This document shows positions 49,509-64,000 of a DNA stretch of 64,000 nucleotides, piece after piece. The DNA comes from a virus: positions 974-64,973 of IMG/VR virus record IMGVR_UViG_2786546475_000019. One strand, given 5' to 3'. Within the stretch, counting starts at the first letter, position 1. The number at the start of each line of letters is the position of its first letter. The notes under the pieces were generated by a model, which ran no database searches, was not told the origin of the DNA, and saw nothing but the letters and a program-made list of their open reading frames with translations. The position numbers were made by a program, and so were the translations under genes.

Positions 49509-49520
49509 GATATTCCTTTC

Positions 49521-49578
49521 TAAACAAGTAAACAACGGTCCACGCTCCATGATACTTGGAGCGTGGTACGTTGGCTAC
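49521..49578 (-). promoter_or_regulatory. Conserved palindromic element copy A: GTAGCCAACGTACC-hairpin-GGACCGTTGTTTAC (minus-strand sense), immediately 5' of the RBS
   Basis: Four copies share conserved 14-bp arms with variable, self-complementary inner stems. Confidence 0.6.
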
Positions 49579-49586
49579 TCTTACCG

Positions 49587-50147
49587 TTAGGTAGACTCAA
49601 ACGTTACGATATCCGGGTCTTGTAGCCCTCCGCCTAAGTCGGAAGCTTTCAACTCAAATTCGTAATTAACTCCACGGAACCCCGTGAAGTTATCACCGAC
49701 CCAGCCGTCGAAAGTGAACTCAACCCGCACCGTGACAGTAGGAGCGGGAATAGCTACTTCCTCAATGAATACGTCGGTCCAGCCTTGACCGCCAGAACCT
49801 CCATTAAGCGGGTTAGTGTTGTTTCCCCAATTCATAGGAAATTTTATAGTTTCCGTCACGCTCACGGGACCATTTGGGCCTTCTACCACGACAGTGTGGT
49901 CAACCATTTGATAAGTTCTCACGTGAACTGCAAGCCACTCCAAACGATTGTCAACCCACCAAGTTGCAGTTAAGTTAACTTTTGTAACGTCCCCGGCTGA
50001 GACTTCCGTGACTCCCATTGAGGCGGAGCTGTAGTAGTCTCCGGAAGTGCCGTGCACCGGGTTGTTGCCGCCTCCGCCTACTTGACCGTAAGCAGTTGTT
50101 GCTACGAGCAACAGAATAGTAAACAACACAAGTGATAAAATACGCAT
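49587..50147 (-). CDS. Secreted protein (signal peptide MRILSLVLFTILLLVATTAYGQ)
   Basis: ORF of 186 aa. Confidence 0.45.
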   Translation of the reverse strand: MRILSLVLFTILLLVATTAYGQVGGGGNNPVHGTSGDYYSSASMGVTEVSAGDVTKVNLTATWWVDNRLEWLAVHVRTYQMVDHTVVVEGPNGPVSVTETIKFPMNWGNNTNPLNGGSGGQGWTDVFIEEVAIPAPTVTVRVEFTFDGWVGDNFTGFRGVNYEFELKASDLGGGLQDPDIVTFEST

Positions 50148-50176
50148 AGTCTCTCCTTAAAAGAGTAAAGATTTGT

Positions 50177-50188
50177 GGTCCGTGGACC
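50177..50188. promoter_or_regulatory. GGTCCGTGGACC 12-mer (second exact copy), intergenic
   Basis: Exact match to 2566-2577. Confidence 0.5.
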
Positions 50189-50189
50189 A

Positions 50190-51014
50190 TCATTTAGTAG
50201 GACGACACAATGCTCGTGTCTTCCAGTAGTTGAAGCTACGTTCCAACTCTTTGACGAACGCTTCCGCATCCATCTGAGTATCAGTGCCGCCGTCGCTGCC
50301 GAAGTGGTTGTGCAGCAACGTTTCAGGTTTCATCGGAGCATTCAGGTCTTCTAAGTCCACCCCAGCGTTGACTGAGATGATATTCCACCGCCCGTAGGCT
50401 TGTTCTCCGCTCTCATAGAGCACGTCTCGATGATAAAGGACGACTTCGACGTGGCAGGCGGCGGCCTTATTTACGCCGTCCAAGTATTCATGCCGACGTG
50501 GCGACTCGCCGTCACGTCGTGGCTTATACTCCACGATCAAAGTATCATTGTTCCGAAGCTTACGAATAGGGCAATAAACCCCGTTCGCGTCAATCGGAAC
50601 GATGATAACTCCGTCTCTATAGCCGGGACGCTGCTCGTGAAATCGGGCTTGTACCTGTTCAACGAGCACTTCGTCTGAGAACTTCCAGTGGGAGAACTCA
50701 CTATTGGCTGTCTGCCGACTAACGAAGTCGTGGACCGCTACGTCTGGAGCTGGGTTGCTCCAGTTCTGTTGCGTAACCTGCAACACGGTGGGTTCTCCAT
50801 TAGGGTGGATCGCCGCTTTGTCCCTTGGCTCGTAGTCATAAATGAAGGTATCTCCGTCCGAGGATTGAAGGGCATTACGCCCCGATCCATCTTCTTCTGC
50901 GTCGCCGTAGGGGACGTAGCCGTTTTTAAGAAGTATGATAAATTCGTCGTTACTTAACATTTGTTGGTTGTCAGTTTTCATCTCGCTCTCCTGTTTATTT
51001 AACAAGCTTTCCAT
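50190..51014 (-). CDS. Hypothetical protein
   Basis: ORF of 274 aa. Confidence 0.4.
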   Translation of the reverse strand: MESLLNKQESEMKTDNQQMLSNDEFIILLKNGYVPYGDAEEDGSGRNALQSSDGDTFIYDYEPRDKAAIHPNGEPTVLQVTQQNWSNPAPDVAVHDFVSRQTANSEFSHWKFSDEVLVEQVQARFHEQRPGYRDGVIIVPIDANGVYCPIRKLRNNDTLIVEYKPRRDGESPRRHEYLDGVNKAAACHVEVVLYHRDVLYESGEQAYGRWNIISVNAGVDLEDLNAPMKPETLLHNHFGSDGGTDTQMDAEAFVKELERSFNYWKTRALCRPTK

Positions 51015-51283
51015 TCAGCAATAAGTTTAGCAGCTTCGGGTGAGACTTTCACCCACTGTTTCACTGAAATGTCCTCATGGGTTTCAACAGCTGCCGTGAT
51101 ACGTGTGTTGGTCTTCGGACCATTAGCCGCTAAGCCAAAGAGTCCACCGCACTCAGAACTCCAGTAAAGGACCATTCGAGCGTTTCGCAATTTGATAGGC
51201 TTTCCAGCTTCGGGGTCTTTGTCCGCCATACCGATTATAACGGCTCGTCCGTTTTCCCCGCAACAAACTAGATACATCGACAT
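50999..51283 (-). CDS. Hypothetical protein
   Basis: ORF of 94 aa. Confidence 0.35.
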   Translation of the reverse strand: MSMYLVCCGENGRAVIIGMADKDPEAGKPIKLRNARMVLYWSSECGGLFGLAANGPKTNTRITAAVETHEDISVKQWVKVSPEAAKLIAEWKAC

Positions 51284-51284
51284 T

Positions 51285-51629
51285 TCAGTCTCCTCTTATC
51301 AATTGATAAATTTCTTTGTAAGTATGTACTGGCATATTATACTTGTCCGCTATATCCTGCCAGTTCTCTTCCCACCAGCTAAAAGAATGACACTGACCCC
51401 CAACTTTCAACACTCCAAAGTCTTGGTTGACTTCTACTTTGCGGCCGTGTAAAATTCCGAGTGTTATCAGTTTGCCGTAGCCGTAGCCGTAGCCGTAGCC
51501 GTAGCCGTCGCCGTCGCCGTAGCCGTCGCCGTAGCCGTAGCCGTAGCCGTAGCCGTCGCCGTAGCCGTAGCCGGTCCCGTAGCCGGTCCCGTAGCCGGTC
51601 CCGTAGCCGTCGCCGTGGTTACTTAACAT
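51285..51629 (-). CDS. Gly-Tyr repeat protein: N-terminal (GYG/DGYG)n low-complexity region (~50 aa) plus a ~60-aa C-terminal domain
   Basis: RBS taaggaactatcaATG. Encoded by a (GCCGTA/GCCGTC)n hexanucleotide array at ~51470-51610. Confidence 0.45.
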   Translation of the reverse strand: MLSNHGDGYGTGYGTGYGTGYGYGDGYGYGYGYGDGYGDGDGYGYGYGYGYGKLITLGILHGRKVEVNQDFGVLKVGGQCHSFSWWEENWQDIADKYNMPVHTYKEIYQLIRGD

Positions 51630-51726
51630 TTGATAGTTCCTTATAAATGATCAACTTTGGTCTTTGCTTCACGCGGACCGATGTACGGTTCCAACGTAAA
51701 TAAGTCATTGATATTTTCACATAGTT

Positions 51727-51933
51727 TCATCTTGCTCTCCTGTTTGCTCGCTTAGCGAGTCGTTGAGTTTCAGGATCGTCCGGAAGTATCACTAGCGATC
51801 CTGCGGTCTTATGGCCGTACACCATGTACCCTGTAGCACGCTCCGTGGTGCTACAGGTTGCACACGTCATTGTGTGCGGAAGTACCTCTAAGCGTTCACT
51901 ATCAATTTGTGTTTTGCAGTTTATGCAGTTCAC
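51727..51933 (-). CDS. TraR/DksA-like C4 zinc-finger protein
   Basis: CINC...15 aa...CATC in a 68-aa protein, typical of the phage TraR-like family. Confidence 0.4.
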   Translation of the reverse strand: MNCINCKTQIDSERLEVLPHTMTCATCSTTERATGYMVYGHKTAGSLVILPDDPETQRLAKRANRRAR

Positions 51934-52178
51934 TCTTGCTCCTTCCAGAACTTGATATTTTTGACAACCCCTTCGGCGAGGTCAGCGATAGAATCTATCA
52001 CTTCTCGCTCACAACCGGGAATGGTGTAGAAGTAATTAAACTCCCCACCCTCGGTGAAGGTAACAAGTTGCGTGAAGCGACCCTTGTTTATCTTGGACAA
52101 GTGCCAGTAGACTTCGCGAACGCCTTCGTTAAGAAAAATGTAACAGGGAGTTTCGCCAATGACTTTAGTTTCGTACAT
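51930..52178 (-). CDS. Hypothetical protein (start refined to MYETKVIGE...)
   Basis: The internal ATG is preceded by the conserved tgaaaggattatcATG start context. Confidence 0.35.
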   Translation of the reverse strand: MYETKVIGETPCYIFLNEGVREVYWHLSKINKGRFTQLVTFTEGGEFNYFYTIPGCEREVIDSIADLAEGVVKNIKFWKEQE

Positions 52179-52188
52179 GATAATCCTT

Positions 52189-52518
52189 TCAGATTGAGTA
52201 AGTGCGAGATTGAAGTGCTTGTTTCGGTTCACGGCCCTTGTACTTAGTTCCAGGCTGCTCGAACCACGTTCCACGTGAGATGTGAATATCCAAGTCAAGA
52301 TATTCATACTTCGGGACGTTATAATAGTCTGCTAAGTCGTAAACGTCCAGATTATCAAGATCTGGAATTGGTCGCAACGTAATATGCGACAGTACGTAAG
52401 CCGCCACATTACGTTGCTTACGCTTGAGCGTTGGGTTAGCCGCTTGGACCGTGGCCCACAGCCGCTCAAAAGACTCTAGAGTTGGACACAACTCAATGAT
52501 AGATACTCTCTTAGACAT
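52189..52518 (-). CDS. Hypothetical protein (start refined to MSKRVSIIEL...)
   Basis: Avoids the 185-bp overlap with the upstream gene. gggag RBS. Confidence 0.3.
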   Translation of the reverse strand: MSKRVSIIELCPTLESFERLWATVQAANPTLKRKQRNVAAYVLSHITLRPIPDLDNLDVYDLADYYNVPKYEYLDLDIHISRGTWFEQPGTKYKGREPKQALQSRTYSI

Positions 52519-53062
52519 TGGCCACGGCTCCCATCTTAAGAACCTTGGCACACATTGCCAACAATTTGGCGTGGTGTCGGGGAGCTTCAACATGGTTCTC
52601 GAACCATGAATCATCCGCCCCACATGGTAGCTTGACTCCCCCGGCTCGGAAGTATTGATAATTGTGCCGTGCGACACGGGCATTGTCCCGTGCATTGAGC
52701 AAGCACTCCCGTCTCGTGGCCCGTGGCGGACGAAGATGGTCGAATTTCATCAAAAGAACGCTATCAATGGAAGATTTCCCGCATCCTGCGTCTCGCAGCG
52801 TGCGAATATCATCCGCTGCGGCTTTGCGAGCGGTTCGAACCCACTCAATATGGGCCAGAGCTTCCCGATAAAGGTCGATCTGTTCGCTGATCCAGTAGCC
52901 AAGGGTGGCCTCAAAATCATGGAGAGTTACTTGATAGTCCAGAGTTCCGACCCAACGTAGCGGGGTGCCTGGAATGTAAGCTTTGTAGTCGTGGCCGGAA
53001 GCCTCGACCTCGACAGGCAAATCGTTGACGTAGAACATTCCAAGAGGTTGCATAGCTTTCAT
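52511..53062 (-). CDS. Hypothetical protein (start refined to MKAMQPL...)
   Basis: Conserved start context. The ORF-track extension to 53152 runs through element copy B. Confidence 0.4.
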   Translation of the reverse strand: MKAMQPLGMFYVNDLPVEVEASGHDYKAYIPGTPLRWVGTLDYQVTLHDFEATLGYWISEQIDLYREALAHIEWVRTARKAAADDIRTLRDAGCGKSSIDSVLLMKFDHLRPPRATRRECLLNARDNARVARHNYQYFRAGGVKLPCGADDSWFENHVEAPRHHAKLLAMCAKVLKMGAVANV

Positions 53063-53087
53063 GATAATCCTTTCAAGTGAGAAAAAA

Positions 53088-53134
53088 GTAAACAACGGTC
53101 CCTGCACCTCACGAGTGCATGGTACGTTGGCTAC
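53088..53134 (-). promoter_or_regulatory. Conserved palindromic element copy B
   Basis: gtaaacaacggtcc ... ggtacgttggctac on the + strand. Confidence 0.6.
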
Positions 53135-53144
53135 TGGCTTGCTA

Positions 53145-53570
53145 CTAAACAATTGCCCTCTGATTCAGTTCAGGAACAACAGTGTGAGCTATCAATATCC
53201 CAAGCTTGACGCCCCAGTTGACGAGTCTTTGATAAGCTTCGTCCAGCTCCGCCAACGTCTTATATTTAAGGGTCAGCCCGCTGATTAGCAAAGGCTCACC
53301 GTCGCGAGTCGCTCGCAACACGCATTTCCCGTCCCCGGTTGTGATAGAAAAGCTGCATTTATCAGCTAGTCGTAGCTGCGGTATGCCAACCATGTTCAAT
53401 TTTCGTCGAACGTATTGGCGAGCCGCCTGGGAGTCCGTAGCATACGTGACCTTGAGGTGCTCAATAATTTGTTGAGTGTCGGACGTGCCATACAGCTCCT
53501 GAAGTCGCTGATCGGTCTCAAACATCAGAAGTTGCTCGATGAAATTCCAAGTCGTGTGATTGTTAATCAT
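53145..53570 (-). CDS. Hypothetical protein
   Basis: ORF of 141 aa with the conserved start context. Confidence 0.4.
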   Translation of the reverse strand: MINNHTTWNFIEQLLMFETDQRLQELYGTSDTQQIIEHLKVTYATDSQAARQYVRRKLNMVGIPQLRLADKCSFSITTGDGKCVLRATRDGEPLLISGLTLKYKTLAELDEAYQRLVNWGVKLGILIAHTVVPELNQRAIV

Positions 53571-53591
53571 GATAATCCTTTCAAGAAATTA

Positions 53592-53638
53592 GTAAACAAC
53601 GGTCCATGCACCTCATGGGTGCACGGTACGTCAGCTAC
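53592..53638 (-). promoter_or_regulatory. Conserved palindromic element copy C
   Basis: gtaaacaacggtcc ... ggtacgtcagctac. Confidence 0.6.
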
Positions 53639-53645
53639 CAACTAC

Positions 53646-54014
53646 TTATACTTCAGTCCGCCACTTAAGCCAGAATTCCAACATAGCGTTAAAGTTGTGG
53701 TAAGTCCCGTCGTCTTCGACGTTATGATAATCTTCAAGGTCCAACGGGGCGAACTCCTCAAGTGTCTCACGCAACGGTCTGACGGTGTGTGAACCATTCG
53801 TTGAGTAAGAATATGAAACTTCCGTTAACGCCTCACATCGCACAATAAAGGTTTCGAAAGTTTTCTCAAGCCGAGATTGGAGCCTGCGATCTTTGATTTC
53901 TCGAACTATCAGTACCGGGGTTCCTGGTCCTTTGACCAATAACCCTTTCTTGATTTCGATTCGGTTCTCTTTGACTTCTCGACAGATTTTGAACAACATA
54001 GACTTAGCTTTCAT
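53646..54014 (-). CDS. Hypothetical protein
   Basis: ORF of 122 aa with the conserved start context. Confidence 0.4.
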   Translation of the reverse strand: MKAKSMLFKICREVKENRIEIKKGLLVKGPGTPVLIVREIKDRRLQSRLEKTFETFIVRCEALTEVSYSYSTNGSHTVRPLRETLEEFAPLDLEDYHNVEDDGTYHNFNAMLEFWLKWRTEV

Positions 54015-54038
54015 GATAATCCTTTCAAGTGAGAAACA

Positions 54039-54086
54039 GTAAACAACGGTCCGGGCTACCCGTGGGCAGCACGGTACGTTGGCTAT
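54039..54086 (-). promoter_or_regulatory. Conserved palindromic element copy D
   Basis: gtaaacaacggtcc ... ggtacgttggctat. Confidence 0.6.
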
Positions 54087-54142
54087 TGATAGACCTAGGC
54101 CCGAAGGCCCAGGATTAAATCCAGATTGTCAAAGATCAAAAT

Positions 54143-54285
54143 TATCATTTGTGTCCCGCCACTGGCGGAAATGATATGATAGCTTACAGACCTACGGTCA
54201 ATCTATTCTATACTTAATATCGGCAATTGGGAAGTAAGAAAATAGATTATTTTTGAAAATAATCAAAACTTTATCATATCATTTT
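54143..54285. promoter_or_regulatory. Operator-like region. It has the palindrome TATCATTT-gtgtcccgccactggcgg-AAATGATA. It also has the inverted pair AAATGATATGATA (54169-81) and TATCATATCATTT (54273-85)
   Basis: Seen directly. The same architecture recurs at 59145-59359. Confidence 0.55.
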
Positions 54286-54627
54286 TTACACTGTTTCCTT
54301 CTCAATGATAATCCCATTGATTTCGAATTGGTTCGTGACCATATGCCAATGCATATCATTATACAGGAACCGATAGCAAGTTCTCCGATACCTGAACTCG
54401 TGACTAGGCCCATGGGCCGTGTACTCGGGTGTAGGCCATTTATCAATGTACCCTGTTAGAGACACGGACCTTTCATCTGGAAAAAAGAATTCAGGCTCTT
54501 GGACCTTGATCAATTCATCGTTGGACAAGTTACGGAGCCAAAGCCTATCTTCATCAAGATGATAATTTGCCTGCCACTCAAACCAAGCTTCAAACTCAGT
54601 CATGAAACAGTATGGGTTTCTGTTCAT
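54286..54627 (-). CDS. Hypothetical protein (start refined to MNRNPYCF...)
   Basis: gggagttaacATG RBS. Avoids the 175-bp overlap with the Dam gene. Confidence 0.35.
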   Translation of the reverse strand: MNRNPYCFMTEFEAWFEWQANYHLDEDRLWLRNLSNDELIKVQEPEFFFPDERSVSLTGYIDKWPTPEYTAHGPSHEFRYRRTCYRFLYNDMHWHMVTNQFEINGIIIEKETV

Positions 54628-54628
54628 G

Positions 54629-55396
54629 TTAACTCCCAAGAATATAAAGTGCTTCAACCACGGAAGATCGAATCTCGCCAGCAGATTGATAGATTCGATA
54701 CTCGTACTTTTCAGTCCATTCCTGAGCTTCCAAGTATGTGTTCTTGTAGTGATTGATAACAACAGTGCCTTGTCGGTCCTTGGCCCACGAAACAATTTCC
54801 TCAAGCGAGATCAGATCGAACCCTTGTGTCTCATCGTAAGGCGGGTCCAAGTAGAATAACGCATCGACACTATCATATGAAGCTAGCTTCTTCCAGTCCC
54901 AATTCTCGATTTGCCACTTGCTAATACGAGCACGAAGCAGGGGCCAGATTCTCATTTTACTGGCTACATTCGGCTGCTTCTGTGAGAAGTTGCGAGCGTA
55001 GTTAAGCCTCCGCCCCAAGTAAGACATAACCGCTGTCACGTACCACTTTGCTGCACGCTTCACGGGGTTACTTGATAGCTGCCAAGTCTTTTTGCAATGC
55101 AACCATTCTTCTTCGGAAGAAGGATGATACTTTTTAAGTTCTTCGACAAGCTCCTCGTAGTGGTTACGGAACGCTCGATAGAAGTCAATGATCCCGGAGT
55201 CTTTATCATTAAACACCATGTACGGGAACTGAGCCACGTTCAATGATACCATTCCTGTCCCGCCAAACACGTCAATAAATTTCTTGTGCGTGTCTCGCAT
55301 GTGGTTCAGAATAGGAAGAATATGTTGCAAGGCCCGTGCCTTAGACCCTATCATTCGAAACGGAGCTTCACGTTTCTTGAAGTCTTTATCAGTCAT
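54629..55396 (-). CDS. DNA N6-adenine methyltransferase, Dam family
   Basis: DVFGGTGMVSLNV (motif I, FxGxG) and YLDPPY (motif IV DPPY). Confidence 0.7.
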   Translation of the reverse strand: MTDKDFKKREAPFRMIGSKARALQHILPILNHMRDTHKKFIDVFGGTGMVSLNVAQFPYMVFNDKDSGIIDFYRAFRNHYEELVEELKKYHPSSEEEWLHCKKTWQLSSNPVKRAAKWYVTAVMSYLGRRLNYARNFSQKQPNVASKMRIWPLLRARISKWQIENWDWKKLASYDSVDALFYLDPPYDETQGFDLISLEEIVSWAKDRQGTVVINHYKNTYLEAQEWTEKYEYRIYQSAGEIRSSVVEALYILGS

Positions 55397-55581
55397 CCTA
55401 GTATCTCCAAGAGAACATTTAATTGGTCAGCACACGTCCGATACCCTTGTCGCTCGGCTTCGCGACGGTTTTCAAACTCCTGACCTTCTGGAGACCCATC
55501 AACTATTTCAGGTCGAGCCCCTTTCTCTCGCCACTTCTCAATCAACGCTTCTAAAACTTCTCGCTTGATACTTTTAGTCAT
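55393..55581 (-). CDS. Small hypothetical protein (ATG start at 55581 with a gggagg RBS; the ORF track uses GTG at 55641)
   Basis: RBS spacing. Confidence 0.3.
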   Translation of the reverse strand: MTKSIKREVLEALIEKWREKGARPEIVDGSPEGQEFENRREAERQGYRTCADQLNVLLEILG

Positions 55582-55976
55582 ACGACTTTCCTCCCGTGTG
55601 TTAATGTAATTGTTTCGCCAGTTTGGGTAGTCTCTGTCCACGTCTTAGACCACGGACCTCGAATTGATAGCATCCACCCTTTGCCCTCGACCTTATGGTT
55701 CAGCTCGTGAGGTGTGTACTTTACTCGGAACTTTTTATACTCCCGTGGCCAGCCGTAAATACAGTCAAAGTCGTCCGGTTTCCGAACAAACTCCGTGGCC
55801 CATCCCATTAGGAGCATGGTCCATGCATTGAACGCATGGGTGTGGAAGTTCCGTTCAGCAGCACCGCCCTTCACTCGAAGCAGAACGATTGAGAACAAAC
55901 ATTTGATTTCAATGATAAAGAACCCTGTTACGTTGGACTTTGGTCCACCATCTTTACGCCATGATAATAACCTCAT
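55578..55976 (-). CDS. Hypothetical protein
   Basis: ORF of 132 aa, atga-coupled to the downstream gene. Confidence 0.35.
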   Translation of the reverse strand: MRLLSWRKDGGPKSNVTGFFIIEIKCLFSIVLLRVKGGAAERNFHTHAFNAWTMLLMGWATEFVRKPDDFDCIYGWPREYKKFRVKYTPHELNHKVEGKGWMLSIRGPWSKTWTETTQTGETITLTHGRKVV

Positions 55977-55979
55977 AGT

Positions 55980-58586
55980 TTAAGTTGCCCTTTCTCCCTT
56001 AATCGTTTCCCTTTTAACACCGTCTGGAGTTTCAACAAAACGAAACCCGTTGTCTTTCGGAGCTTCATACGAGAAGCGAACATTGTAGATACATGTCTTT
56101 TGCATCTCGTCAATAGCTATCAAATACATTTCCGCTAGGTTCTGTTCGAACTTCTTACGATTTGCTCGCCCCCCGTCGTCCATGTAGTTCTTATACAGAA
56201 GTTGAAGCTCCACTTTTGATCCAGGCTGTTCTTGGAGCACGGACCGTGCAAAGAGTTCAACGTCGGTTCGGTTCAAGTCCGCAGCTTGCTCTTTATCAAC
56301 CGTATCCACAACAGGAACATTCAAACGCCCCTGAGTTGGCGGTATTTGATACGCTAACAAGGCATACAGAAACGCGGGAGCTTGAGCTTCCAGTTGTTCC
56401 AAAAGAAGTTTCTTTGGAATAACTTTATCTGGCTTCTTGGGTACATTGATAACCGTGATTCGGGTGTCTCCGGGAAGTATCGGACAGAACTCACGATTGT
56501 TCGCGGTGTGAATCCAATGCGACGTATTAGGTATCATGTAAGCGGGCTTGCCTTTTGTGTTGACTGAGATTACTTTGGACGTAACATAGTCTTTAACTTT
56601 TTGATAAACAGTGGAGTCCGAGTTCAAGTTAATCTCCTCAAGAACGCAAAGCACCGCCCCAGCAAGTTCACTGTTGAACGAGCTGACTAACGCGTTCTCC
56701 GCTCGAACGACACCGGGACTAAACAACAATGATAATGCTTCATGCAAAATCGACTTCCCGGTGTCTTGCTCCGTGGAATACAAAAACAGAAACGGCAAAG
56801 GTTCAAACGGTTGTTGTATCAATGACGCGACCCACGCAAACAGATAGTCGTGTCCTTTGCAAATACCGTTCTCCGTGAACCAATTATCCTTACGAACGTA
56901 TTGATCTAGAGAGTGTCCGATATGGTCCAGAATCTTCATCCAAAGATCAAAGTTTCCTTCTTCTGGAGTGTGTCGCAGTTGAGCAGCTCCCCGATTCCAT
57001 AAACGATTACCCGGATATTCAGACTCAAAGGGTCGTGAAACAATGTTCCAGGGCTTCATGATAGCTTCACCCTGCATCTGCTGAATCTCTTTAGTGTTCA
57101 TTCCTTGGCTTTTGAGACCGAGCGTCAGGTTGGCGATCGGTTCTTCGATCCAACCGTTATCATGCGTCTCAATAGCCCAACCGGCGTCCACGCTACCCAT
57201 AATCATGTGACGAATCTGCGTATTCGTGTCCACGTCATACGGGCTACCAGTACGAGACTCTTTTATCACTTTCAACCAACGTGTTCCTTTTGCGATCCAA
57301 CCTTCAATGCCGCCTGGGTCGCCTTTGATTTTCGGAATCTCAATTTTAAGCTTGTTTTCCTTTAGCTGAGTGACAGTTGCTTGACGAGCTATCAATACTT
57401 CGTCAATGGCTTGCATTTCATGTTGCTGGAAAAGCTTAGTCAATTTATGAGCAGGAAGCACCATTCCTTTTTTATCATCTTCTAACGCTCCTGAATCTTT
57501 CACCAAGGTCCAAAGCGGTGGAACATAATTCAAATACGTGCGAGTCCATCCGTTCTTCGTGGTCCACGATTCATGTTCCTTGGCTTCGTTGCCATATCGG
57601 TACACGGCCCATGCTCCGTGTGGAAGCGGATACGCGAAGCAGTTCTGTTTGTGGAGATCAGTTCCGTCACTGATAGTCTGGAAATCGCCTTTAAACCCGA
57701 GTTCTTTGGAAGCTTGCTCCAATAGTTTAGTGTGCGTGATAAACATCTTTCCTTCCGCGTTCCAGTAACCAAACGCGGAGTTGTTATTCATCCACTCAAG
57801 CAAACGCTCATGTTCTTCTTCAAGCGTCACGGACTGTTTGTGCTTGATAATTTCTTCCATACGGTCATCAGCATAAGAGTGTTTCTTCTTACCGCTCACG
57901 ACGCCAATATGATCTCGCCATCCCAGCGGCTCTTTGATATGGGCCTCAGCTTCCTTAATAATTTGAAAGCCGTTCTCTCCCGTTTTCCGTGACCATACCC
58001 ACATATTACAACCGAAAACATCAACTGCAAGGTCAAAGTCGAAACCAGTCTCAAGACATAGTTGACTCAGAACGCCGCGAGCAAGAGCAGCGTGTTCTGC
58101 CCGACTTGTCGTAGTGATAAGGTCTTCAAAGAAAACATATAAGTGGTAGCCAGCTCCACTTTTAGATCGTTGTACTCGCACCCAAGGTACGTTACACGCT
58201 CGTTGTTGAATATCAAGTAGATCAGTCTGCGTTAGCTTGTGCTTGTGCCGAGCTGAGTGGCCCACGATACCGTCAAAGTCGAAAGCAACATATCGCGAGA
58301 TGCATTGCCCAAAGTCCCACCCCGATAAACCAACCATTGAGGCGTGATCTTCCAGGCTGAACTTGATATTTCCTTCATCGTATTTGCCATCAATTCGAAA
58401 ATTCTTCCAGACTTGAACACCGTCAGTCCACTCCCGGTAGGTCCGACCTTTGTATTCCTTATCAACAGGCTCGCCGCCATCAGCGGCTACGTTTACTTGA
58501 ACTTCCATTGTAGGCGAGTATAACGCCGCCATGTGGGGTTCTGCGTTATCACGCAAGAATCGTTCTAAAGCTTCACTTTTACGCAT
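55980..58586 (-). CDS. Bifunctional primase-helicase: AEP/PrimPol-type primase N-terminal domain plus a D5/P4-alpha-like SF3 helicase C-terminal domain
   Basis: VAFDFDG ... SGAGYHLYVFF (AEP motifs). LYSTEQDTGKS Walker A. ATG at 58586 with a gagg RBS preferred over the TTG at 58592. Confidence 0.75.
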   Translation of the reverse strand: MRKSEALERFLRDNAEPHMAALYSPTMEVQVNVAADGGEPVDKEYKGRTYREWTDGVQVWKNFRIDGKYDEGNIKFSLEDHASMVGLSGWDFGQCISRYVAFDFDGIVGHSARHKHKLTQTDLLDIQQRACNVPWVRVQRSKSGAGYHLYVFFEDLITTTSRAEHAALARGVLSQLCLETGFDFDLAVDVFGCNMWVWSRKTGENGFQIIKEAEAHIKEPLGWRDHIGVVSGKKKHSYADDRMEEIIKHKQSVTLEEEHERLLEWMNNNSAFGYWNAEGKMFITHTKLLEQASKELGFKGDFQTISDGTDLHKQNCFAYPLPHGAWAVYRYGNEAKEHESWTTKNGWTRTYLNYVPPLWTLVKDSGALEDDKKGMVLPAHKLTKLFQQHEMQAIDEVLIARQATVTQLKENKLKIEIPKIKGDPGGIEGWIAKGTRWLKVIKESRTGSPYDVDTNTQIRHMIMGSVDAGWAIETHDNGWIEEPIANLTLGLKSQGMNTKEIQQMQGEAIMKPWNIVSRPFESEYPGNRLWNRGAAQLRHTPEEGNFDLWMKILDHIGHSLDQYVRKDNWFTENGICKGHDYLFAWVASLIQQPFEPLPFLFLYSTEQDTGKSILHEALSLLFSPGVVRAENALVSSFNSELAGAVLCVLEEINLNSDSTVYQKVKDYVTSKVISVNTKGKPAYMIPNTSHWIHTANNREFCPILPGDTRITVINVPKKPDKVIPKKLLLEQLEAQAPAFLYALLAYQIPPTQGRLNVPVVDTVDKEQAADLNRTDVELFARSVLQEQPGSKVELQLLYKNYMDDGGRANRKKFEQNLAEMYLIAIDEMQKTCIYNVRFSYEAPKDNGFRFVETPDGVKRETIKGERAT

Positions 58587-59017
58587 TAACAAACCTCATT
58601 AACAAATTGATATCATTTTCGATAACAGATTCGAGAAAGCCCGAAACAACCAGACTTCACCCTATAGCTACGAGTGGCGGGATATCGGATTGCCCCACAA
58701 AATGAAAATAAATCGAGTTAATGGAAATTGATACGAAACTTTAATGACGTTTCCAGTGCAGCGTTATCATTATTCTCTCACGTACGCGAAGCCATTAACG
58801 TTTTTGATACTCAAACCTTTAATTTAAGCTTCTACTTCTTATGGGTACGAGGTGAAAGTAAAATATAGTAGTAGTGTAAATATTATAAGGATTTCAGCCG
58901 CTCAGGCGAGCTTCTGATAAGAAAACGTTAATGAGCCAAATTTTACGTTAAATTGGTATGTTTCGACGGGAATTGATACCGTCTCACTGCTCTCCTCCCG
59001 AACCTTGCATCTTGGCT

Positions 59018-59059
59018 CACGCTACACGTATCACGCTACACGTATCACGCTACACGTAC
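59018..59059. repeat. cacgctacacgtat x3 tandem 14-bp repeats (iteron-like), followed by the ACGT-rich palindrome tacgcgta
   Basis: Seen directly. Confidence 0.85.
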
Positions 59060-59144
59060 GCGTAGCACGTGGGTACGTGCCAGGGCCAAAGACCTTGAGT
59101 TCTCTTTTAAGTCTCGGAACTGACGTGTAAATTAGTAAGCGGTT

Positions 59145-59359
59145 ATCATTTTGCGTGAGCAAATGATAATTCTCGCGTGCTCCCGCGTGTCCCGCACGTG
59201 CGACTATTTAAATACGCGACGTGCGTAAATGATATGATACATGGTTTTCAAAATACTTGAAAATATTTTCAAAATACGGGGCAATCCTGCCCGGTTTTAT
59301 TCGTAGCTATAGGGGGAAAGTAGACTGTTTTACTTTCCAAAACGACTATCATATCATTT
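59145..59359. promoter_or_regulatory. Operator-like region. It has the palindrome TTATCATTTtgcgtgagcAAATGATAA (59144-69). It also has the inverted pair AAATGATATGATA (59227-39) and TATCATATCATTT (59347-59). Inside it are the 16-bp palindrome ttgaaaatattttcaa and two copies of ttttcaaaatac
   Basis: Seen directly. Same architecture as 54143-54285. Confidence 0.55.
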
Positions 59360-60403
59360 GTGGAGAAGTCCAACATGGCAGAAGAAACTCAAGCTACCGA
59401 AACTATCATTTCAGAAGGATTGACTCAAGAGCAGTTCGAATCCGTGGGTAGCGACATTCAGGCGATTTCTATCAATGAGATCACCGTCCCTGAAGTTAAG
59501 CTTCGTGGCGTGAACACCGAAGGGGAAGAATACTTGGAACTCAAGGATTCTATCAAATCGCAAGGACTGTTGCAGAACATTACTGTACGTCCCGTCGAAA
59601 TCGCTGGCAAGCAAGGCTACGAACTTATCACTGGGCTCCAGCGATATACTGCTTGCAAGGAACTCGGACATGAGACTATCGACGCTCGTGTGAAAGAAAT
59701 GTCCGAGCAAGAAGCTTGGTTGTGGATGATCCACGAAAACACTCAACGTGTTACGCAAAAAGCGTCAGATATCACCAAGCTCTTGAAGCGTCTGATCGCC
59801 AAAGATCCAACGATGTCTATTCCACGACTCGCGAAGCTTTTGTCGAAGTCCGTGCCCCAAGTACAGAACTATCTGGCACTTGATAAACTGACCGACGAGG
59901 CAAAGGAATTGGTCGATGATGAAACCATCGGTTTGACCAACGCAGTTGCTCTCGCCAAGCTCCCACCTGAGGAGCAGGAAGACTTGCTTGCTGACGCGTC
60001 AACAATGACCGTTGCTGAATTTGTTCCACTTGTAAACGAACGAAAAGAAAAGGTTGATCAAGCCAATCGTGAAGCTCGTGAACAGGAAAAGAACACGTTT
60101 TCTCCGAAACCAAAAGCTCGCAAGAAAGACGATCTCGTCACCGAGCTTGGAATTATCATGGGCACGGAGACTGGCACTTCGCTTCTTATGGAGTGCTTGA
60201 ACGGTCAGGATGTTGATACTTCCAACCAGAATGTCAAGGCAGTTATCACTCAGACAATGGAGTGGGTCCTGAACCTTGATCCAGCGTCCGTCGACGCTCA
60301 ACGAGCGAAATGGGAAGACGCCAAAAAGAAGCGGGAAGAACGAGAAAAAGCGAAAGCTGCCGCTCGTGCCGAACGTGAAAAGGCGAAAGCCCTGGAAATC
60401 TAA
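59360..60403 (+). CDS. ParB-like N-terminal domain protein with a highly charged KE-rich C-terminal tail
   Basis: YELITGLQRYTACKELG matches the ParB GxxRxxA box. RBS ggagaag. Confidence 0.55.
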   Translation: MEKSNMAEETQATETIISEGLTQEQFESVGSDIQAISINEITVPEVKLRGVNTEGEEYLELKDSIKSQGLLQNITVRPVEIAGKQGYELITGLQRYTACKELGHETIDARVKEMSEQEAWLWMIHENTQRVTQKASDITKLLKRLIAKDPTMSIPRLAKLLSKSVPQVQNYLALDKLTDEAKELVDDETIGLTNAVALAKLPPEEQEDLLADASTMTVAEFVPLVNERKEKVDQANREAREQEKNTFSPKPKARKKDDLVTELGIIMGTETGTSLLMECLNGQDVDTSNQNVKAVITQTMEWVLNLDPASVDAQRAKWEDAKKKREEREKAKAAARAEREKAKALEI

Positions 60404-60487
60404 ATTGATAGTTTCAATTTAGTTTCAATTTAGATTCCATCTGATACTTCAATTTTAAACTTCAACTTCAATTTAAAAGGACATTTT

Positions 60488-61156
60488 ATGTCTCAACTTG
60501 CACAGCTCAAGAAAAAAGTTTCCAACAAACCTGATCCTCAAGAACGTAACTTGATAACATCCGGCTCTAACATGCCGTACGTCAAGTTGTGTGGCTCAAG
60601 CACCACGCTTGTGAAGCAGGGTATCATTCCAATGGGGCATCACTCCCTAACGGAAGGTCAGAATCACATTGACCTTGGAAACGAGTTTCTTGCTGCGTTT
60701 ATTTCAAATCGTCCAAAAGCCGTTCACTACGGCGAAGATTTGACTATCAGTTATGATCCGACGAAACCTGAGTTTCAGGAGATTATGAAGAAAGCTGATT
60801 TGGGTGGACAAGCCGCTCGTGGGTATTCCTACGGTTACGAGTTTCTTCTATACTTGCCAGAGCAAAACAAAATGGCAACGTATCATTTTGGAAATCCCAC
60901 GGCTCGCCAGTCAACTGATGCGATCCTTGCATTGTTTGACGACCACAACTTCTTCATGGCGACGGTCAGCTCCACACTGATCGAGCGGAAAGGCAATTCA
61001 TGGCACGGTCCTGTAGTCAAATACTACGAGAACCCTGTTGAAATGCCAAAGTTTGATGCTGAAACTGTTCAAGCTTCCATTGAGAAGTTTGATAATCCTG
61101 TCCCATTGATCGGTACCGAAGTGGCTACTGACGAAGTGGCAAACGATCTTGAGTAA
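60488..61156 (+). CDS. Hypothetical protein
   Basis: ORF of 222 aa. AT-rich direct repeats upstream. Confidence 0.4.
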   Translation: MSQLAQLKKKVSNKPDPQERNLITSGSNMPYVKLCGSSTTLVKQGIIPMGHHSLTEGQNHIDLGNEFLAAFISNRPKAVHYGEDLTISYDPTKPEFQEIMKKADLGGQAARGYSYGYEFLLYLPEQNKMATYHFGNPTARQSTDAILALFDDHNFFMATVSSTLIERKGNSWHGPVVKYYENPVEMPKFDAETVQASIEKFDNPVPLIGTEVATDEVANDLE

Positions 61157-61442
61157 GCGACCAAAGTGGGAGTTCTTTGAACCTCAAAAATTCAAAAAGC
61201 TTCTATACGAAGCAGACCAGACTGATTTGTCTGGTCTGCATTCGCTTACTGATATTTCACAACATTACGGCGAGCGTAATAGACACCACTATTACGCTCT
61301 CGTTTTCGTTTGTGACATTGAGGAAATAACTCGTATTGCCCCACACGTCAACGTAACAATCTGTACGGTCGTTGATAAAAAGTATTATTGTTTGGCCTCA
61401 GGAAGTAAAGAATCATGGATCAAGCTCGGTTACATGAAATAA
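61149..61442 (+). CDS. Hypothetical protein
   Basis: ORF of 97 aa. Confidence 0.3.
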   Translation: MSKRPKWEFFEPQKFKKLLYEADQTDLSGLHSLTDISQHYGERNRHHYYALVFVCDIEEITRIAPHVNVTICTVVDKKYYCLASGSKESWIKLGYMK

Positions 61443-63412
61443 GAAATTCACACAAAGGGATAAACGTCATCCGCCCCAGCTTAATGAGTAAGCTGGCAGA
61501 AGGTCCAGTACGTCTAAAGCTCACGTACCAAGGCCGACGTTATCCTATGACGTTCAACATCAACAGCGATGCCACTGAAATATCAATTAAGTTCCCCTTC
61601 TCAAGAAAAGGGCTTGAGCTGGTCAAGACTCGCTTCGGGGGACGTAAATGGGACAAAACCAATGAGCGTTGGACCATGCCGCTCACAATGCGTAACTTGT
61701 TCCTAATGGACCTACTCTCAGGAGGCAAACCTCATTTAAATTGGCGTCGTGAGGAAGACTACACCGACTTTATCAAAGAGTTCTGGGCTCAACGAGATAA
61801 ACCTTTCGAGTGTGAATTGTTTCAACATCAGATTGAAATGATAAATCTTGCTCTCAACTCTCGACACGTAATCCTGGCCGCAGATATGGGCCTTGGCAAA
61901 ACGTTAACGGCAATCGTTGTTATGGAGATTCTAGGAATTCCCAAGTGTACTTGGGTGGCTCCTAATGCTCCGTTAGCTCAAGCAAAGAACGAGTTTCGAG
62001 ATTGGCGAACACTGACTCAGGCTCGGTGGCTCACGTATCGTGGAGCCGTAAAATGGCAAAACGAATACACTGGTAAAGCTCCGAAAGCTTTTATCATTGA
62101 CGAATCTGCCTACATTAAAAACAAATCACAACGAACAGATGCTTGTTTGTACATTGCCGACTGCGTACGAGAGGAGCATGGCCTGGACTCATTAATCCTG
62201 CTCCTGTCGGGTAAACCAGCTCCTAAGTCCCCACCTGATTGGTTTAACCAAGTGGAAGCAATTTGTCCCGGAGCTATCAACGAGAATTCAAAATATACTC
62301 TTGAACGTCGCTTAGGTCTTTGGAAACAATCTGAATACGGCGAGTTCCAAGAACTTGTTACTTGGTATGATAACGAAGATAAGTGTGCCCATTGCGGGGA
62401 GATTAAACTTCACCCTAACCATCAAGAGCTTGACTTCGAAGAATTTATTCGTCACGGCTCTACTGGCGAACTAGCCACGTATGAGCGTCACGAATTCCAA
62501 CCGTCGGTAAACGAAGTTATCAAGTTCGGTCAACGGCTTAATGGCTTTTGTGGTGTGTGGCAAAAAGAAGATTGCACTGACTTGCCGCCAAAGCAATTCC
62601 ACGTGGAACAACTCGTTGTTACTCCTGAAATGTTGAACTTAGCTAAGTCTTACATGGCGAAAGCAACATCAGGTTCCGAGTCTTTGATATTTTTACGAAC
62701 ATTATCTGATGGTTTTGTTTACCAGAAGATACCAACCGATCAACTTGCTGTATGCCAAGGGTGTCATGGCGAAAAGCAAGTCGAAATGATAGACCCTGAC
62801 ACTAACGAAACGTTTTGGGCTGATTGTCACACGTGCCACGGTGAAGGATCAGTGCCGCTTATTGAACGAGTCTATCAAACGTACCCAACACCTAAGTTGG
62901 ATTACTTACACAAGTTACTTGAACTTCATAAGGAGACTGGACGATTTGTGACATTTGCAGCTTTCCAAGCATCAGTAGACATCATTACCAACTTTGCATT
63001 GCAAAAGAATTGGCAAGTGATACAAGCTGATGGGCGAGGCTGGATGTTCCACAAAGGTATTGATAACGTTGCTAAGATGAAGAAAGGGGAAATGCTAGAT
63101 TACTTCCAGAAAGGCCCGGACGACCGCGTATTATTCGTAGGTCAACCCGGAGCTGCTGGTAGTGGATTGACATTGCATCGCTCACCCGGAGTCTTCTTTT
63201 ACTCCAATGATAACGTACCGAATAACCGGTTTCAAGCTATTGATCGAGTTCATCGTATTGGTATGCGTGACGATGGTGGTCACGTCTACGATTGTTTGTG
63301 TTTACCGTCGGATAAACGTATTTTGTCCACGTTAAATAATTCAGAACGATTATCATCTATTACTCTTGACCAGTTGAAGAAGGATTATGAGCACTACCAC
63401 CCCACAAATTGA
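61415..63412 (+). CDS. SNF2-family helicase with an inserted CxxC...CxxC zinc finger
   Basis: ILAADMGLGKT (motif I), IIDESAYIKN (II), LFVGQPGAAGSGLTLH, QAIDRVHRIGM (VI). Confidence 0.7.
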   Translation: MDQARLHEIRNSHKGINVIRPSLMSKLAEGPVRLKLTYQGRRYPMTFNINSDATEISIKFPFSRKGLELVKTRFGGRKWDKTNERWTMPLTMRNLFLMDLLSGGKPHLNWRREEDYTDFIKEFWAQRDKPFECELFQHQIEMINLALNSRHVILAADMGLGKTLTAIVVMEILGIPKCTWVAPNAPLAQAKNEFRDWRTLTQARWLTYRGAVKWQNEYTGKAPKAFIIDESAYIKNKSQRTDACLYIADCVREEHGLDSLILLLSGKPAPKSPPDWFNQVEAICPGAINENSKYTLERRLGLWKQSEYGEFQELVTWYDNEDKCAHCGEIKLHPNHQELDFEEFIRHGSTGELATYERHEFQPSVNEVIKFGQRLNGFCGVWQKEDCTDLPPKQFHVEQLVVTPEMLNLAKSYMAKATSGSESLIFLRTLSDGFVYQKIPTDQLAVCQGCHGEKQVEMIDPDTNETFWADCHTCHGEGSVPLIERVYQTYPTPKLDYLHKLLELHKETGRFVTFAAFQASVDIITNFALQKNWQVIQADGRGWMFHKGIDNVAKMKKGEMLDYFQKGPDDRVLFVGQPGAAGSGLTLHRSPGVFFYSNDNVPNNRFQAIDRVHRIGMRDDGGHVYDCLCLPSDKRILSTLNNSERLSSITLDQLKKDYEHYHPTN

Positions 63413-64000
63413 AATGATTCCGTTAAGCGACATCTATTCAGATGATTCGTTTAACTGTCGTCAAAAATTTAAAGATCGCGAAGTCAGAGGACTTTCCCGA
63501 AGTATCAAAGCTAAGGGATTGTTTACTCCGATTATCGTTCGACCAAAGCCCGGACCTAATGGTGAGAAATACACTATTGTCGCGGGACACCGTCGTAAAC
63601 GAGCCACGGAGCTTGCAGGCCAAACCCATATTCAAGCTATCGTTAAGAACCTTACGGACGACGAAGCTCGAAATATCAATTTGAAAGAGAACTTGGAACG
63701 CCAAGATTTGACACTTTGGCAAGAAGTGAAAGCTCTTGAGTGGTATCGAGATCAACAACTGAACGTCTTTCAAATTATGGACCGTATCAATCAAACAGAA
63801 GCGTGGATTGAGAACCGGCTTCTCGTTCTTCGGATGCCTGCGGGGGTTCAAGAAATGGTTGAAATGGGTCACTTAACTTTAGGCCATATTCGAAGCTTGA
63901 AAAAGTTTATGAATCGTCCTGACTTGCTTGGAAAGTATGCAGCCAAGCTATCAGAGCGGTACGCTTTGGGCAACAAAAACGTCACTCTTGCCCACATTCT
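63387..64000 (+). CDS. ParB-like N-terminal domain protein (3' partial at the window end)
   Basis: TIVAGHRRKRATELAG ParB box. The ORF runs off the window. Confidence 0.5.
   Translation, partial: MSTTTPQIEMIPLSDIYSDDSFNCRQKFKDREVRGLSRSIKAKGLFTPIIVRPKPGPNGEKYTIVAGHRRKRATELAGQTHIQAIVKNLTDDEARNINLKENLERQDLTLWQEVKALEWYRDQQLNVFQIMDRINQTEAWIENRLLVLRMPAGVQEMVEMGHLTLGHIRSLKKFMNRPDLLGKYAAKLSERYALGNKNVTLAHI

Follow-up and report, generated by a model that had tools for sequence, protein, structure and literature searches.

Why does a phage genome carry the same inverted pair of a 13-bp sequence in two separate control regions, and what could read it there? The question is raised by the 64-kb stretch of DNA analysed here (hereafter the window; from IMG/VR record IMGVR_UViG_2786546475_000019), which is part of a roughly 72-kb uncultured marine phage. 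One of the control regions, region 59, is a 788-bp divergent spacer with a primase-helicase gene on one side and the gene of a ParB-like protein (ParB1) on the other; the second, region 54, is a 271-bp gap within the leftward operon, between a 113-aa gene and a 122-aa gene. An earlier reading made from the sequence alone (the sequence-only reading) had assigned them to a dedicated DNA-binding regulator, a repressor or a ParB/KorB-like factor, that loops or brackets promoter segments of ~100 bp, and the elements that it listed, both inverted pairs of the 13-mer and both short palindromes, are confirmed in place. The 13-mer AAATGATATGATA has exactly four copies, all intergenic, which make up two inverted pairs (54169/54272 and 59227/59347), and no copy with one mismatch was found in the 64 kb. 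The interpretation that we tentatively favour is that the box arrays may be operators for a lineage-conserved, sequence-specific DNA-binding factor. The idea of a regulator and its operators is partly supported: the elements are non-random, they occupy two intergenic control regions, and doublets of the same kind stand in the corresponding spacers of relatives, whereas for the dedicated regulator itself there is a candidate only, the ParB-like protein.

Statistical Significance of the Boxes

The 8-mer of the short boxes, AAATGATA, is found 27 times in the whole window, compared to 2.6 times in dinucleotide shuffles. This excess goes back to its core, TGATA/TATCA, which is over-represented more strongly than any other pentamer; an order-5 Markov null matched to the abundance of TGATA predicts 23.7 +/- 5.0 copies. 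By itself, the 8-mer is not enriched, and the signal resides in tandem doublets and in clustering. Under the same null, the 13-mer is expected 0.043 times and was never seen more than once in 300 simulations, which excludes chance as the origin of its four copies, and the tandem doublet TGATATGATA occurs four times where 1.2 copies are expected. Clusters of four and three 8-mers within 250 bp compare with a simulated maximum of three, and tandem TGATA-TGATA at 5-bp spacing is confined within the window to the four long-box sites. The statement that the recurrence is far beyond chance thus holds for the 13-mers and the clustering, but not for the 8-mer.

The two inverted pairs had further been placed in the same spacing class. 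Both do span ~100 bp, but the class is a loose one, with centre-to-centre distances of 100 and 117 bp that are out of helical phase. With a difference of 17 bp between the two spacings, there is no indication of looping that depends on phase.

Apparent Selection for the Box throughout the Genome

A genome search for the 8-mer had been proposed as a test that might refute the sequence-only reading. It shows the core word to be common throughout the genome, and the chance argument based on the 8-mer fails. Its frequency is put down to strong selection for TGATA and not to an AT-rich genome. TGATA/TATCA ranks first of 512 pentamers, at 3.0 times the expectation from base composition and 1.58 times the maximal-order Markov expectation, and the remaining NGATN words have 66-170 counts each, compared to 496 for TGATA. 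After synonymous codon shuffling among all genes, the coding strands are expected to hold 66.8 +/- 6.9 copies of TGATA and 77.4 +/- 7.3 copies of TATCA; the observed numbers are 216 (z = 21.7) and 207 (z = 17.6), respectively, making these the top two pentamers, with the third at z = 8.9. The selection can be followed into individual codons. For NNT-GAT-ANN, 47% of the 344 synonymously possible sites are realised versus 17% expected, and for NNT-ATC-ANN 34% versus 11%. The share of GAT among Asp codons is 72% where A follows and 41-50% where another base does, and the codon before GAT-A ends in T in 67% of cases, compared to 35% before GAT followed by another base. Bases flanking TGATA carry little information.

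Neither AT content nor amino-acid usage accounts for the excess. The near-equal enrichment of both orientations on the coding strand, through synonymous choice, suggests that double-stranded DNA, and not translation, is under selection. An explanation by off-frame stops ("ambush") is rejected, as TATCA is equally enriched on the coding strand, and an origin by C-to-T deamination is rejected, as GGATA is as depleted as CGATA.

On the plus strand, TGATA is commoner than TATCA in both gene blocks left of the spacer (856-58580; shares of 0.58 and 0.57), whatever the direction of transcription, and to the right of it (59375-64000) the share is 0.42, possibly reversed (n = 36, not significant). A separate 20-bp tandem repeat, AATATCAACTAGCTGCACGC, present three times at 2273-2334, contains a TATCA box per unit, with a fourth TATCA nearby; it occupies the gap after the first long rightward gene and could be another box array, e.g., a packaging or regulatory site.

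Box Doublets in Related Phages

A Tara Oceans contig is 100% identical to the window and several further contigs are at least 99% identical. The 99%-identical Tara/ENA contigs show zero differences in either control region, and therefore give no information on conservation. No close relative of the window was found by a DNA search of a cultured-phage collection, no close cultured phage by a search with a terminase-like protein, and no close relatives by a search of IMG/VR with the ParB protein as a single-sequence query; a primase search gave only matches of ~29% identity over part of the protein length. Relatives were recovered via ParB-like homologues with 28-38% identity in public assemblies, and 80 further loci came from an alignment-based scan of IMG/VR. 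The statistics for relatives refer to 66 dereplicated loci (GC content 35-53%), which are phylogenetically related and numbered here with the prefix L. Synteny is kept in them, with the primase-helicase gene leftward and the ParB gene rightward, followed by the family of a 222-aa protein, SNF2, a second ParB-like gene (ParB2), and DNA polymerase A. In the window, the conserved 222-aa protein (60488-61156), the SNF2 helicase, and the second ParB-like gene, which starts at ~63.4 kb and extends past the end of the window, likewise lie 3′ of ParB1.

Doublets of the form TGAT[AT]TGAT[AT] occur at most 1 kb upstream of ParB1 in 45 of the 66 relatives (ParB identity ~30-38%), overwhelmingly as TGATTTGATT. 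Their density is 67-fold higher in the spacers (88 in 63 kb) than elsewhere (18 in 871 kb). The usual arrangement is either an inverted pair, with a doublet facing each of the divergent genes, or two palindromes side by side, and the end of the start-proximal doublet lies a median of 56 nt from the predicted ParB1 start (interquartile range 44-91). The box syntax varies, with tandem arrangements at N0 and N1 and inverted ones at N0, N4, N5, N9, and N18; such flexibility fits modular protein recognition, not a single fixed structure.

Doublets outside the spacers are also informative. Seven of the 18 are intergenic, compared to 7.6% expected, and three of these stand directly upstream of ParB2 (L009 and L086). 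In a second cluster in L046, the doublets flank a separate TTGACA-N16-TATATT promoter, one of them lying in the 5′ untranslated region (UTR), 21 nt before the ATG. L086 and L009 resemble L046 in that a separate sigma-70-like promoter has one doublet upstream and one in the 5′ UTR. Doublets that flank promoters in L046, L086, and L009 would be behaving as operators. Because doublets are found upstream of ParB2 and at the L046 promoter, a second control region with shared boxes is a family trait, and where promoters are recognisable the doublets are seen beside them and are not the promoters themselves.

This last point bears on the idea that the long boxes are themselves promoters, AAATGATATGATA being an extended -10 element (TG-n-TATGAT) whose complement contains TATCAT, so that two face-to-face pairs would yield sense and antisense transcripts. 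The likeness is real: TGATATGAT agrees with TGnTATAAT at eight of nine positions, or seven of the eight specified bases, and at all four window copies it has TGn and TAnnnT, with A at -11 and T at -7. The consensus scan also gave TTGAAA-18-TATCAT, TTTACT-17-TATCAT, and TTTTCA-18-TATCAT at three of the four sites, L010 and L013 carry a sense AATGATATGATTTTG 48-65 nt before gene starts, and the early genes must rely on host RNA polymerase. However, 87% of the 106 doublets in relatives (TGATTTGATT, with the -10 reading TTTGAT) have T in place of the essential A at -11, and in L046, L086, and L009 the doublets are beside, not within, recognisable -35/-10 pairs. In the window, the four copies share no -35 element upstream, two of the four would fire antisense, and -10 elements are not expected under selection in both orientations throughout coding DNA. 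A promoter function of the boxes is thus quite improbable.

Not all relatives have the doublets. The spacer of L014 (9436-9850) contains unrelated CCCCATTTT iterons, and some distant relatives carry 11-13 bp palindromes in place of doublets: L016 (TCAGCGGCTGA; 1308-1381 and 2090-2114) and L017 (AATACGGTATT; 5157-5181 and 5749-5773) have pairs of 11-bp palindromes, 14 bp apart. The exact inverted 13-mer pair was not found in the IMG/VR scan. In metagenome contigs, nine loci had the exact pair, but these are long palindromic repeats of one assembly or chance contexts, unlike the window, and were set aside. The repeats in L018-L024 (JAAUYA01 contigs of one AT-rich assembly) are palindromic with ~60-nt arms containing AATGATATGATA...TATCATATCATT, and the contigs show no similarity to the window.

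Box Type and Genome-Wide Enrichment

The type of box in the spacer is matched by the pentamer enriched in the rest of the genome. The window has TGATA doublets and a 3.0-fold excess of TGATA (rank 1 of 512), with TGATT at 0.86-fold, whereas L011 has TGATT doublets and a 3.3-fold excess of TGATT, also at rank 1. By codon shuffling, TGATT/AATCA is among the top four pentamers in L011, L063, L084, L098, and L029. The two relatives richest in spacer TGATA, L033 (boxes TGATAtTGATA and TGATAataaTATCA) and L077 (TGATTTGATA and TGATAccagTATCA), have TGATA enriched outside the spacer 1.81-fold (z = 4.0) and 2.44-fold (z = 4.4), respectively. TGATW enrichment is absent in the relatives with unrelated repeats (L014, L016, and L017) and in the doublet-free L027 and L053. 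Across the 66 loci, the median TGATT enrichment outside the spacer is 1.67 with doublets versus 1.18 without (Mann-Whitney p = 5e-6), and the TGATT count in the spacer correlates with the enrichment outside (Spearman rho = 0.49, p = 3e-5). As judged from these comparisons, the genome-wide box enrichment and its A/T variant appear to track the operator boxes across a large phage family.

A pentamer enriched throughout a genome could also be the target of a methyltransferase, and the phage encodes a Dam-like (D12) N6-adenine methyltransferase with an intact DPPY motif next to region 54. The boxes would then be its targets, the clusters methylation-sensitive switches, and the enrichment the outcome of selection for modified sites. 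The sites of known D12 enzymes contain GAT, methyltransferase targets are typically motifs of such a length (5 bp), and the two strongest enrichments seen first, those of the window and L011, are both accompanied by the enzyme. Across the 66 relatives, however, the median TGATT enrichment is 1.51 with the enzyme and 1.61 without it (p = 0.59); the strongly enriched L098, L029, and L056 lack the enzyme in the available sequence, L017 has it and shows no enrichment, and methyltransferase targets are not normally over-represented. The probability that we attach to methylation is slight indeed.

Candidate Readers of the Box

The ParB-like protein is the leading candidate reader of the boxes. ParB1 matches PF02195 (3e-14) and PF17762 (7.5e-8), and its matches in PDB include Spo0J, ParB, and Noc at 1e-11 to 1e-7; it is a genuine protein of the ParB/Spo0J/Noc type. 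The canonical CTP-binding arginine patch GERRxRA is missing; the window has TGLQRYTA at this position and relatives have DGLHRYSA. The recognition helix has the family consensus KSxxW[VI]xQRL and reads KSVPQVQNYL in the window; departures from the consensus are seen in the window, L014, L016, and L017, and it is in these genomes that the spacer repeats are least like TGATT.

The primase-helicase is universal in the family and is still a candidate reader, although no DNA-binding domain was identified in it. The sequence-only reading had also named small helix-turn-helix (HTH) proteins as possible binders, but no Pfam match to a small HTH repressor, or to a ribbon-helix-helix (RHH) regulator, lies near either region. 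The presence of no gene family, the D12 methyltransferase included, is linked to box enrichment. Three further identities were rejected: a Fur box, as the best window site, GCAAATGATAATTCTCGCG, matches 11 of the 19 positions of the consensus GATAATGATAATCATTATC and the majority box TGATTTGATT is unlike GATAAT; the core site of IHF (WATCAA), because of consensus mismatch and the TGATT majority form; and the Bacteroidetes -7 motif (TAnnTTTG), in view of its incorrect spacing and of the clear Shine-Dalgarno sequences before the genes.

Anatomy of the Two Control Regions

The coordinates of the boxes and of adjoining features are collected in Table 1. The arms of the long boxes are separated by gaps of 107 nt in region 59 and 90 nt in region 54. 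In region 59, the palindrome at 59143-59169 overlaps a -35/-10-like pair, TTATCA-16-GATAAT, that reads toward ParB. E1, E2, and region 54 had been considered as three homologous 130-nt elements, which is withdrawn, since only E1 and E2 are homologous (z = 7.9); region 54 has in common with them only the end boxes and one 11-mer. Region 54 consists, in the direction of transcription, of the long box, 90 nt, the inverted long box, the GC hairpin, the short box, and the TTGACA 20-mer. Its short palindrome, TATCATTT-N18-AAATGATA, spans 54143-54176, and the second half (54169-54176) is part of the long box. The 20-mer TTTGATCTTTGACAATYTGG is present in exactly two copies (708-727, plus strand; 54121-54140, minus strand), compared to 0.02 expected. 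As the copy at 708-727 stands upstream of the structural operon, the block is a candidate promoter, of which the phage sigma factor may be the user. The 113-aa gene beside region 54 comes after the D12 methyltransferase gene.

Table 1. Coordinates of the boxes, adjoining elements, and candidate genes in the window.
Feature	Position	Strand	Remarks
TGATA/TATCA boxes	1..64000	both orientations	496 sites, about 1 per 129 bp, evenly spread
20-mer TTTGATCTTTGACAATCTGG with TTGACA	54121..54140	-	sole other copy at 708-727 (+), upstream of structural operon
Short box, AAATGATA on - strand (AAATGATAAT with flanks)	54143..54150	-	directly abuts the 20-mer at 54121-54140
GC hairpin CCGCC-ACT-GGCGG	54156..54168	.	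within N18 spacer
Long box AAATGATATGATA, tandem TGATA doublet	54169..54181	+	region 54
Long box, inverted partner (TATCATATCATTT on + strand)	54272..54284	-	starts 2 nt past stop codon of gene 54286-54627
D12 methyltransferase, Dam-like, DPPY motif intact	54629-55396		adjoins region 54
Primase-helicase (DUF5906, P4-alpha-like)	55980..58586	-	alternative candidate reader or initiator
Degenerate box cluster TTATCGAAAATGATATCAA (fifth site)	58600..58618	-	23-30 nt upstream of primase-helicase start (58586)
E2, inverted copy of leader block, primase side	58656..58710	-	alignment z = 7.9
14-bp x3 tandem repeat TCACGCTACACGTA	59017..59058	+	in GC-rich core, near AT-rich minimum
Palindrome TTATCATTT-N9-AAATGATAA, two short boxes	59143..59169	.
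Long box AAATGATATGATA	59227..59239	+	136-148 nt upstream of ParB-like start codon; readable as extended -10 (TGaTATGAT)
E1, leader block (TATTTTCA..GGGGCAATCC..N..TCGTAGCTATAGGGGGAA), conserved	59264..59318	+	central 55 nt of 107-nt bracket
Long box, inverted partner TATCATATCATTT	59347..59359	-	ends 2 nt before GGAG Shine-Dalgarno, 15 nt before ATG 59375
ParB-like protein 1	59375..60403	+	ParB_N + HTH_ParB; candidate box reader

The inverted pairs of both regions allow for a role at the level of RNA, in which a 13-bp stem closes a leader of ~100 nt, the short palindromes form hairpins, and translation, processing (e.g., by RNase III), or stability is controlled. The predicted folds closed by the 13-bp stem have energies of -44 and -28 kcal/mol (z = -4.5 and -4.7), z is -3.2 to -4.1 for the short hairpins, the proximal arm abuts the ParB Shine-Dalgarno sequence, and relatives keep the sense doublet at a fairly fixed distance from the start codon. 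However, perfect inverted repeats yield favourable energies by their very construction, a closing stem is lacking in E2, the leader on the primase side (z = -0.7), and in most relatives a doublet stands alone on its transcript, with nothing to pair with. Searches against Rfam gave no match, whether in the window at gathering thresholds or in the two regions at E <= 1, and genome-wide enrichment in both orientations points to DNA. An RNA element is accordingly very unlikely.

The spacer also has possible origin features, namely, the 14-bp repeats and the AT-rich minimum, where GC content falls to 30% at 58800-58900. The arrays could be initiator sites for the P4-alpha-like primase-helicase, with an origin in the spacer and a second cis site 5 kb off, across the primase gene. 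Parallels would be found in P4 ori/crr, or in the pairs of pentamers to which SF3-helicase initiators, e.g., SV40 large T antigen, bind. The GC-content minimum, the GC-rich core, and the three 14-bp repeats are all in the spacer; the cumulative GC-skew minimum falls at ~59-61 kb; two box clusters flank the gene of the primase-helicase, a protein that every member of the family has; L011 carries four pentamers as two inverted doublets, in the manner of SF3-initiator sites; and the mild plus-strand excess of TGATA in the window does not flip at the 33.5-kb transcription switch. The skew minimum is not independent evidence, because it coincides with the switch in gene orientation. The repeats are not confined to an origin, as a second cluster lies at 54.1 kb and relatives also have doublets in front of ParB2 and near ordinary promoters well away from the spacer. 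Relatives have no box strand asymmetry (476:440 and 733:733), for which reason the boxes are rejected as primase recognition sites, and the lack of an identified DNA-binding domain in the primase-helicase is a further point against its being the initiator. An origin function of the arrays is unlikely on balance.

Proposed Mechanism of Operator Function

The reading of the arrays as operators can be formulated as follows. A 5-bp box (TGATA here; TGATT in most relatives) is probably read by a lineage-conserved DNA-binding factor, for which the ParB-like HTH protein encoded just downstream would be the leading candidate. The composites in the control regions, tandem doublets (TGATATGATA) and inverted pairs, would be high-affinity sites. 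They flank or overlap the promoter-leader segments of what may be divergent early replication operons (primase-helicase leftward and ParB-like rightward), and they also flank a putative start region within the long leftward operon, in front of the 122-aa gene. A bound factor would cover the promoter, or the 5′ UTR together with the ribosome-binding site, and might bridge the flanking sites. The replication module and the operon segment from 54014 would then be blocked, either at initiation or at elongation and the start of translation, and the outcome would be auto-regulation or timing of the replication module. What the data show are the anatomy and its significance, the placement shared across the family, the agreement between spacer box type and the pentamer enriched genome-wide, and doublets on both sides of canonical promoters in relatives; protein binding, the identity of the protein, and repression as the sign of regulation are what we infer from them. 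The same factor probably also uses the roughly 500 selection-maintained single boxes distributed over the genome.

Several observations weigh against this operator model. The claim that segments of ~100 bp are bracketed stands in that they adjoin gene starts, but the consensus scan placed no clear sigma-70 promoter inside the brackets of the window; the same kind of scan is too weak in the spacers of relatives for a general placement of doublets relative to promoters. The start-proximal doublet is sense-oriented in 31 of 37 relatives and antisense in the window, and alignment gave no homology between the interiors of the two bracketed segments of regions 54 and 59. Neither the ParB1 nor the ParB2 recognition helix differs between TGATT-type relatives, the hybrid or A-type L033 and L077, and several doublet-free loci, which suggests that ParB specificity does not track the A/T switch. 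The 5-bp unit is unusually short for an HTH dimer. Finally, a general k-mer bias that inflates spacer counts could partly explain the correlation between spacer and genome, although bias alone does not explain the A-versus-T switch or the 10-mer doublets.

A broader system may be envisaged in which the family with the primase-helicase/ParB/SNF2/PolA module keeps a 5-bp box about once per 130 bp, on both strands and via synonymous codons; one reader would serve as both operator regulator and genome-coating or genome-marking factor, and a T-to-A switch at box position 5 would have remodelled codon usage genome-wide. We regard this extension as doubtful. If true, it would amount to sequence-programmed phage chromatin or to a self-identification code.

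The genome-wide selection for the box is the unusual part of the finding; a few keyword searches of the literature found no account of a phage in which an operator box is at the same time under genome-wide selection. If the proposal is true, a cis-regulatory code of the replication module would be defined for a large, uncultured, and widespread phage family (more than 60 distinct contigs from many metagenomes). Orphan phage ParB-like proteins, the functions of which were found largely unexplored in a 2025 survey (PMC12704722), would gain a testable role. Selection on synonymous sites would be unusually strong, with 47% of the possible Asp-codon TGATA positions used, and the box reader would constrain the whole genome sequence. 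Such a reader should be easy to find, its site being short, abundant, and different between sister lineages, and the box could be usable as a metagenome signature of the phage family.

Comparison with Known Systems

Three features of a ParB/parS system, a palindrome of fixed form, the canonical CTP motif, and ParA, were looked for and not found, and the arrays may accordingly work like such a system rather than being one. The sites are not a fixed palindrome of 13-16 bp but 5-bp boxes in tandem doublets or in inverted pairs with N9, N18, N90, and N107, and no ParA/CbiA-type match was seen among the scanned or Pfam-annotated genes at 33.5-64 kb, the structural half not having been scanned. The closest functional analogue is the KorB-OB network of plasmid RK2, along with other ParB-fold regulators such as BisD. 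In KorB-OB, one operator is present at several control regions of a replicon, near or far from promoters, and regulates replication and maintenance genes (PMC11790492, PMC12409273). The window resembles this in having a ParB-fold HTH protein encoded beside what may be its own sites and in the recurrence of the same putative operator at several control regions of one replicon. It differs in that OB is a single 13-bp palindrome and the window has a 5-bp box with variable tandem or inverted syntax, in that its protein has TGLQRY at the GERRxRA position, and in that no KorA or ParA partner was seen. KorB is not known to us to show enrichment of its half-site throughout a genome.

Dispersed sites of a ParB-family protein are also familiar from phages. 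In N15, the centromere sites of SopB are scattered over the phage genome within control regions, and P1 ParB reads short heptamer and hexamer boxes of parS in mixed orientations and spacings. These are, however, partition systems with a ParA partner in low-copy prophages, whereas no parA, integrase, or other lysogeny function is found among the genes examined in the window, which belongs to a phage with a sigma factor and nucleotide-metabolism genes and, in relatives, DNA polymerase A.

The ori/crr iterons of phage P4, bound by its alpha primase-helicase, share with the window two clusters of one short repeat, several kilobases apart, around a primase-helicase gene, and the primase-helicase of the window is P4-alpha-like by the annotation of its matches. 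P4, however, uses an octamer, and its sites are not known as promoter-flanking elements of other genes; we know of no genome-wide enrichment of the P4 repeat.

Elements that resemble the arrays in form are known as well. The SAS/ESAS of Cluster K mycobacteriophages are conserved 13-bp repeats by the translation starts of a subset of genes, with a function still unexplained; about half of the SAS are accompanied by inverted repeats with a variable spacer, and they are conserved across the phage cluster (PMC3203893). The likeness lies in 13-bp repeats near gene starts, inverted repeats, and cluster-wide conservation. The SAS, however, contains the ribosome-binding site, is asymmetric and essentially in one orientation, and has 11-19 copies per genome (PMC3203893). 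The 13-mer of the window is not a Shine-Dalgarno sequence and is present in both orientations in four copies, one of which abuts the ribosome-binding site without containing it, and its core pentamer is selected genome-wide. An array of very short boxes is also seen in TP228 parH, which is reported to have very short degenerate tetramer boxes with AT-rich spacers, cooperative binding, and an additional role as operator (PMC3130281). Its reader, ParG, is an RHH protein of the ParF/ParG partition system, and no RHH protein is detected near either control region of the window.

Other Features of the Window

Genes are oriented rightward at 856-33403, leftward at 33580-58586, and rightward again from 59375, and the long open reading frames at 856-33403 are presumably structural genes. 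Besides the genes described above, the phage gene set includes a sigma factor, ThyA, a dNMP kinase, MazG, RNase T, and CsrA. The sigma factor (216 aa, with Sigma70 regions 2 and 4) is encoded at 37586-38236 on the minus strand, and a 138-aa protein with a weak region-4-like HTH at 33580-33996, also on the minus strand; promoters for either of the two proteins were not identified. The nucleotide-metabolism cluster (34580-37168 and 39679-40206, minus strand) encodes ThyA (E = 3e-97), dNMP kinase, and MazG, together with a DUF1937/nucleoside deoxyribosyltransferase-like protein, and relatives encode DNMK, MazG-like, and dGTP diphosphohydrolase-like domains. The CsrA homologue (128 aa, PF02599; 44384-44770, minus strand) adjoins a RecD-like helicase and a pyrimidine-dimer glycosylase. 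Paralogous leaders of ~75 nt precede two consecutive genes of 141 and 122 aa (53571-53645 and 54015-54090, minus strand). Both leaders have a GC hairpin and a T-rich tail, and their AAAGGATTATCATG start regions are identical; they could serve as attenuators or processing sites, or be targeted by the phage CsrA.

The composition of the window has some further peculiarities. GCGC is nearly missing, with one site (1324) in 64 kb compared to roughly 160 expected from base composition, and CCGCGG, CCCGGG, AGGCCT, and GAAGAG/CTCTTC are likewise strongly depleted, which looks like restriction-site avoidance. The hexamer GCCGTA is repeated about 24 times in coding DNA at 51474-51616, within the open reading frame 51285-51629 (minus strand), and nearly all differences between the 99-100% identical strains fall in 51474-51616 and 51750-52370. 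Arrays rich in GGACC/GGTCC, with GGTCC..GGACC hairpins, recur between genes at 1-90, 2237, 2431, 2566, and 50177; GGACC is over-represented in coding DNA too (z = 6.8), and CACGGACC is found in 17 copies versus 1.9 expected.

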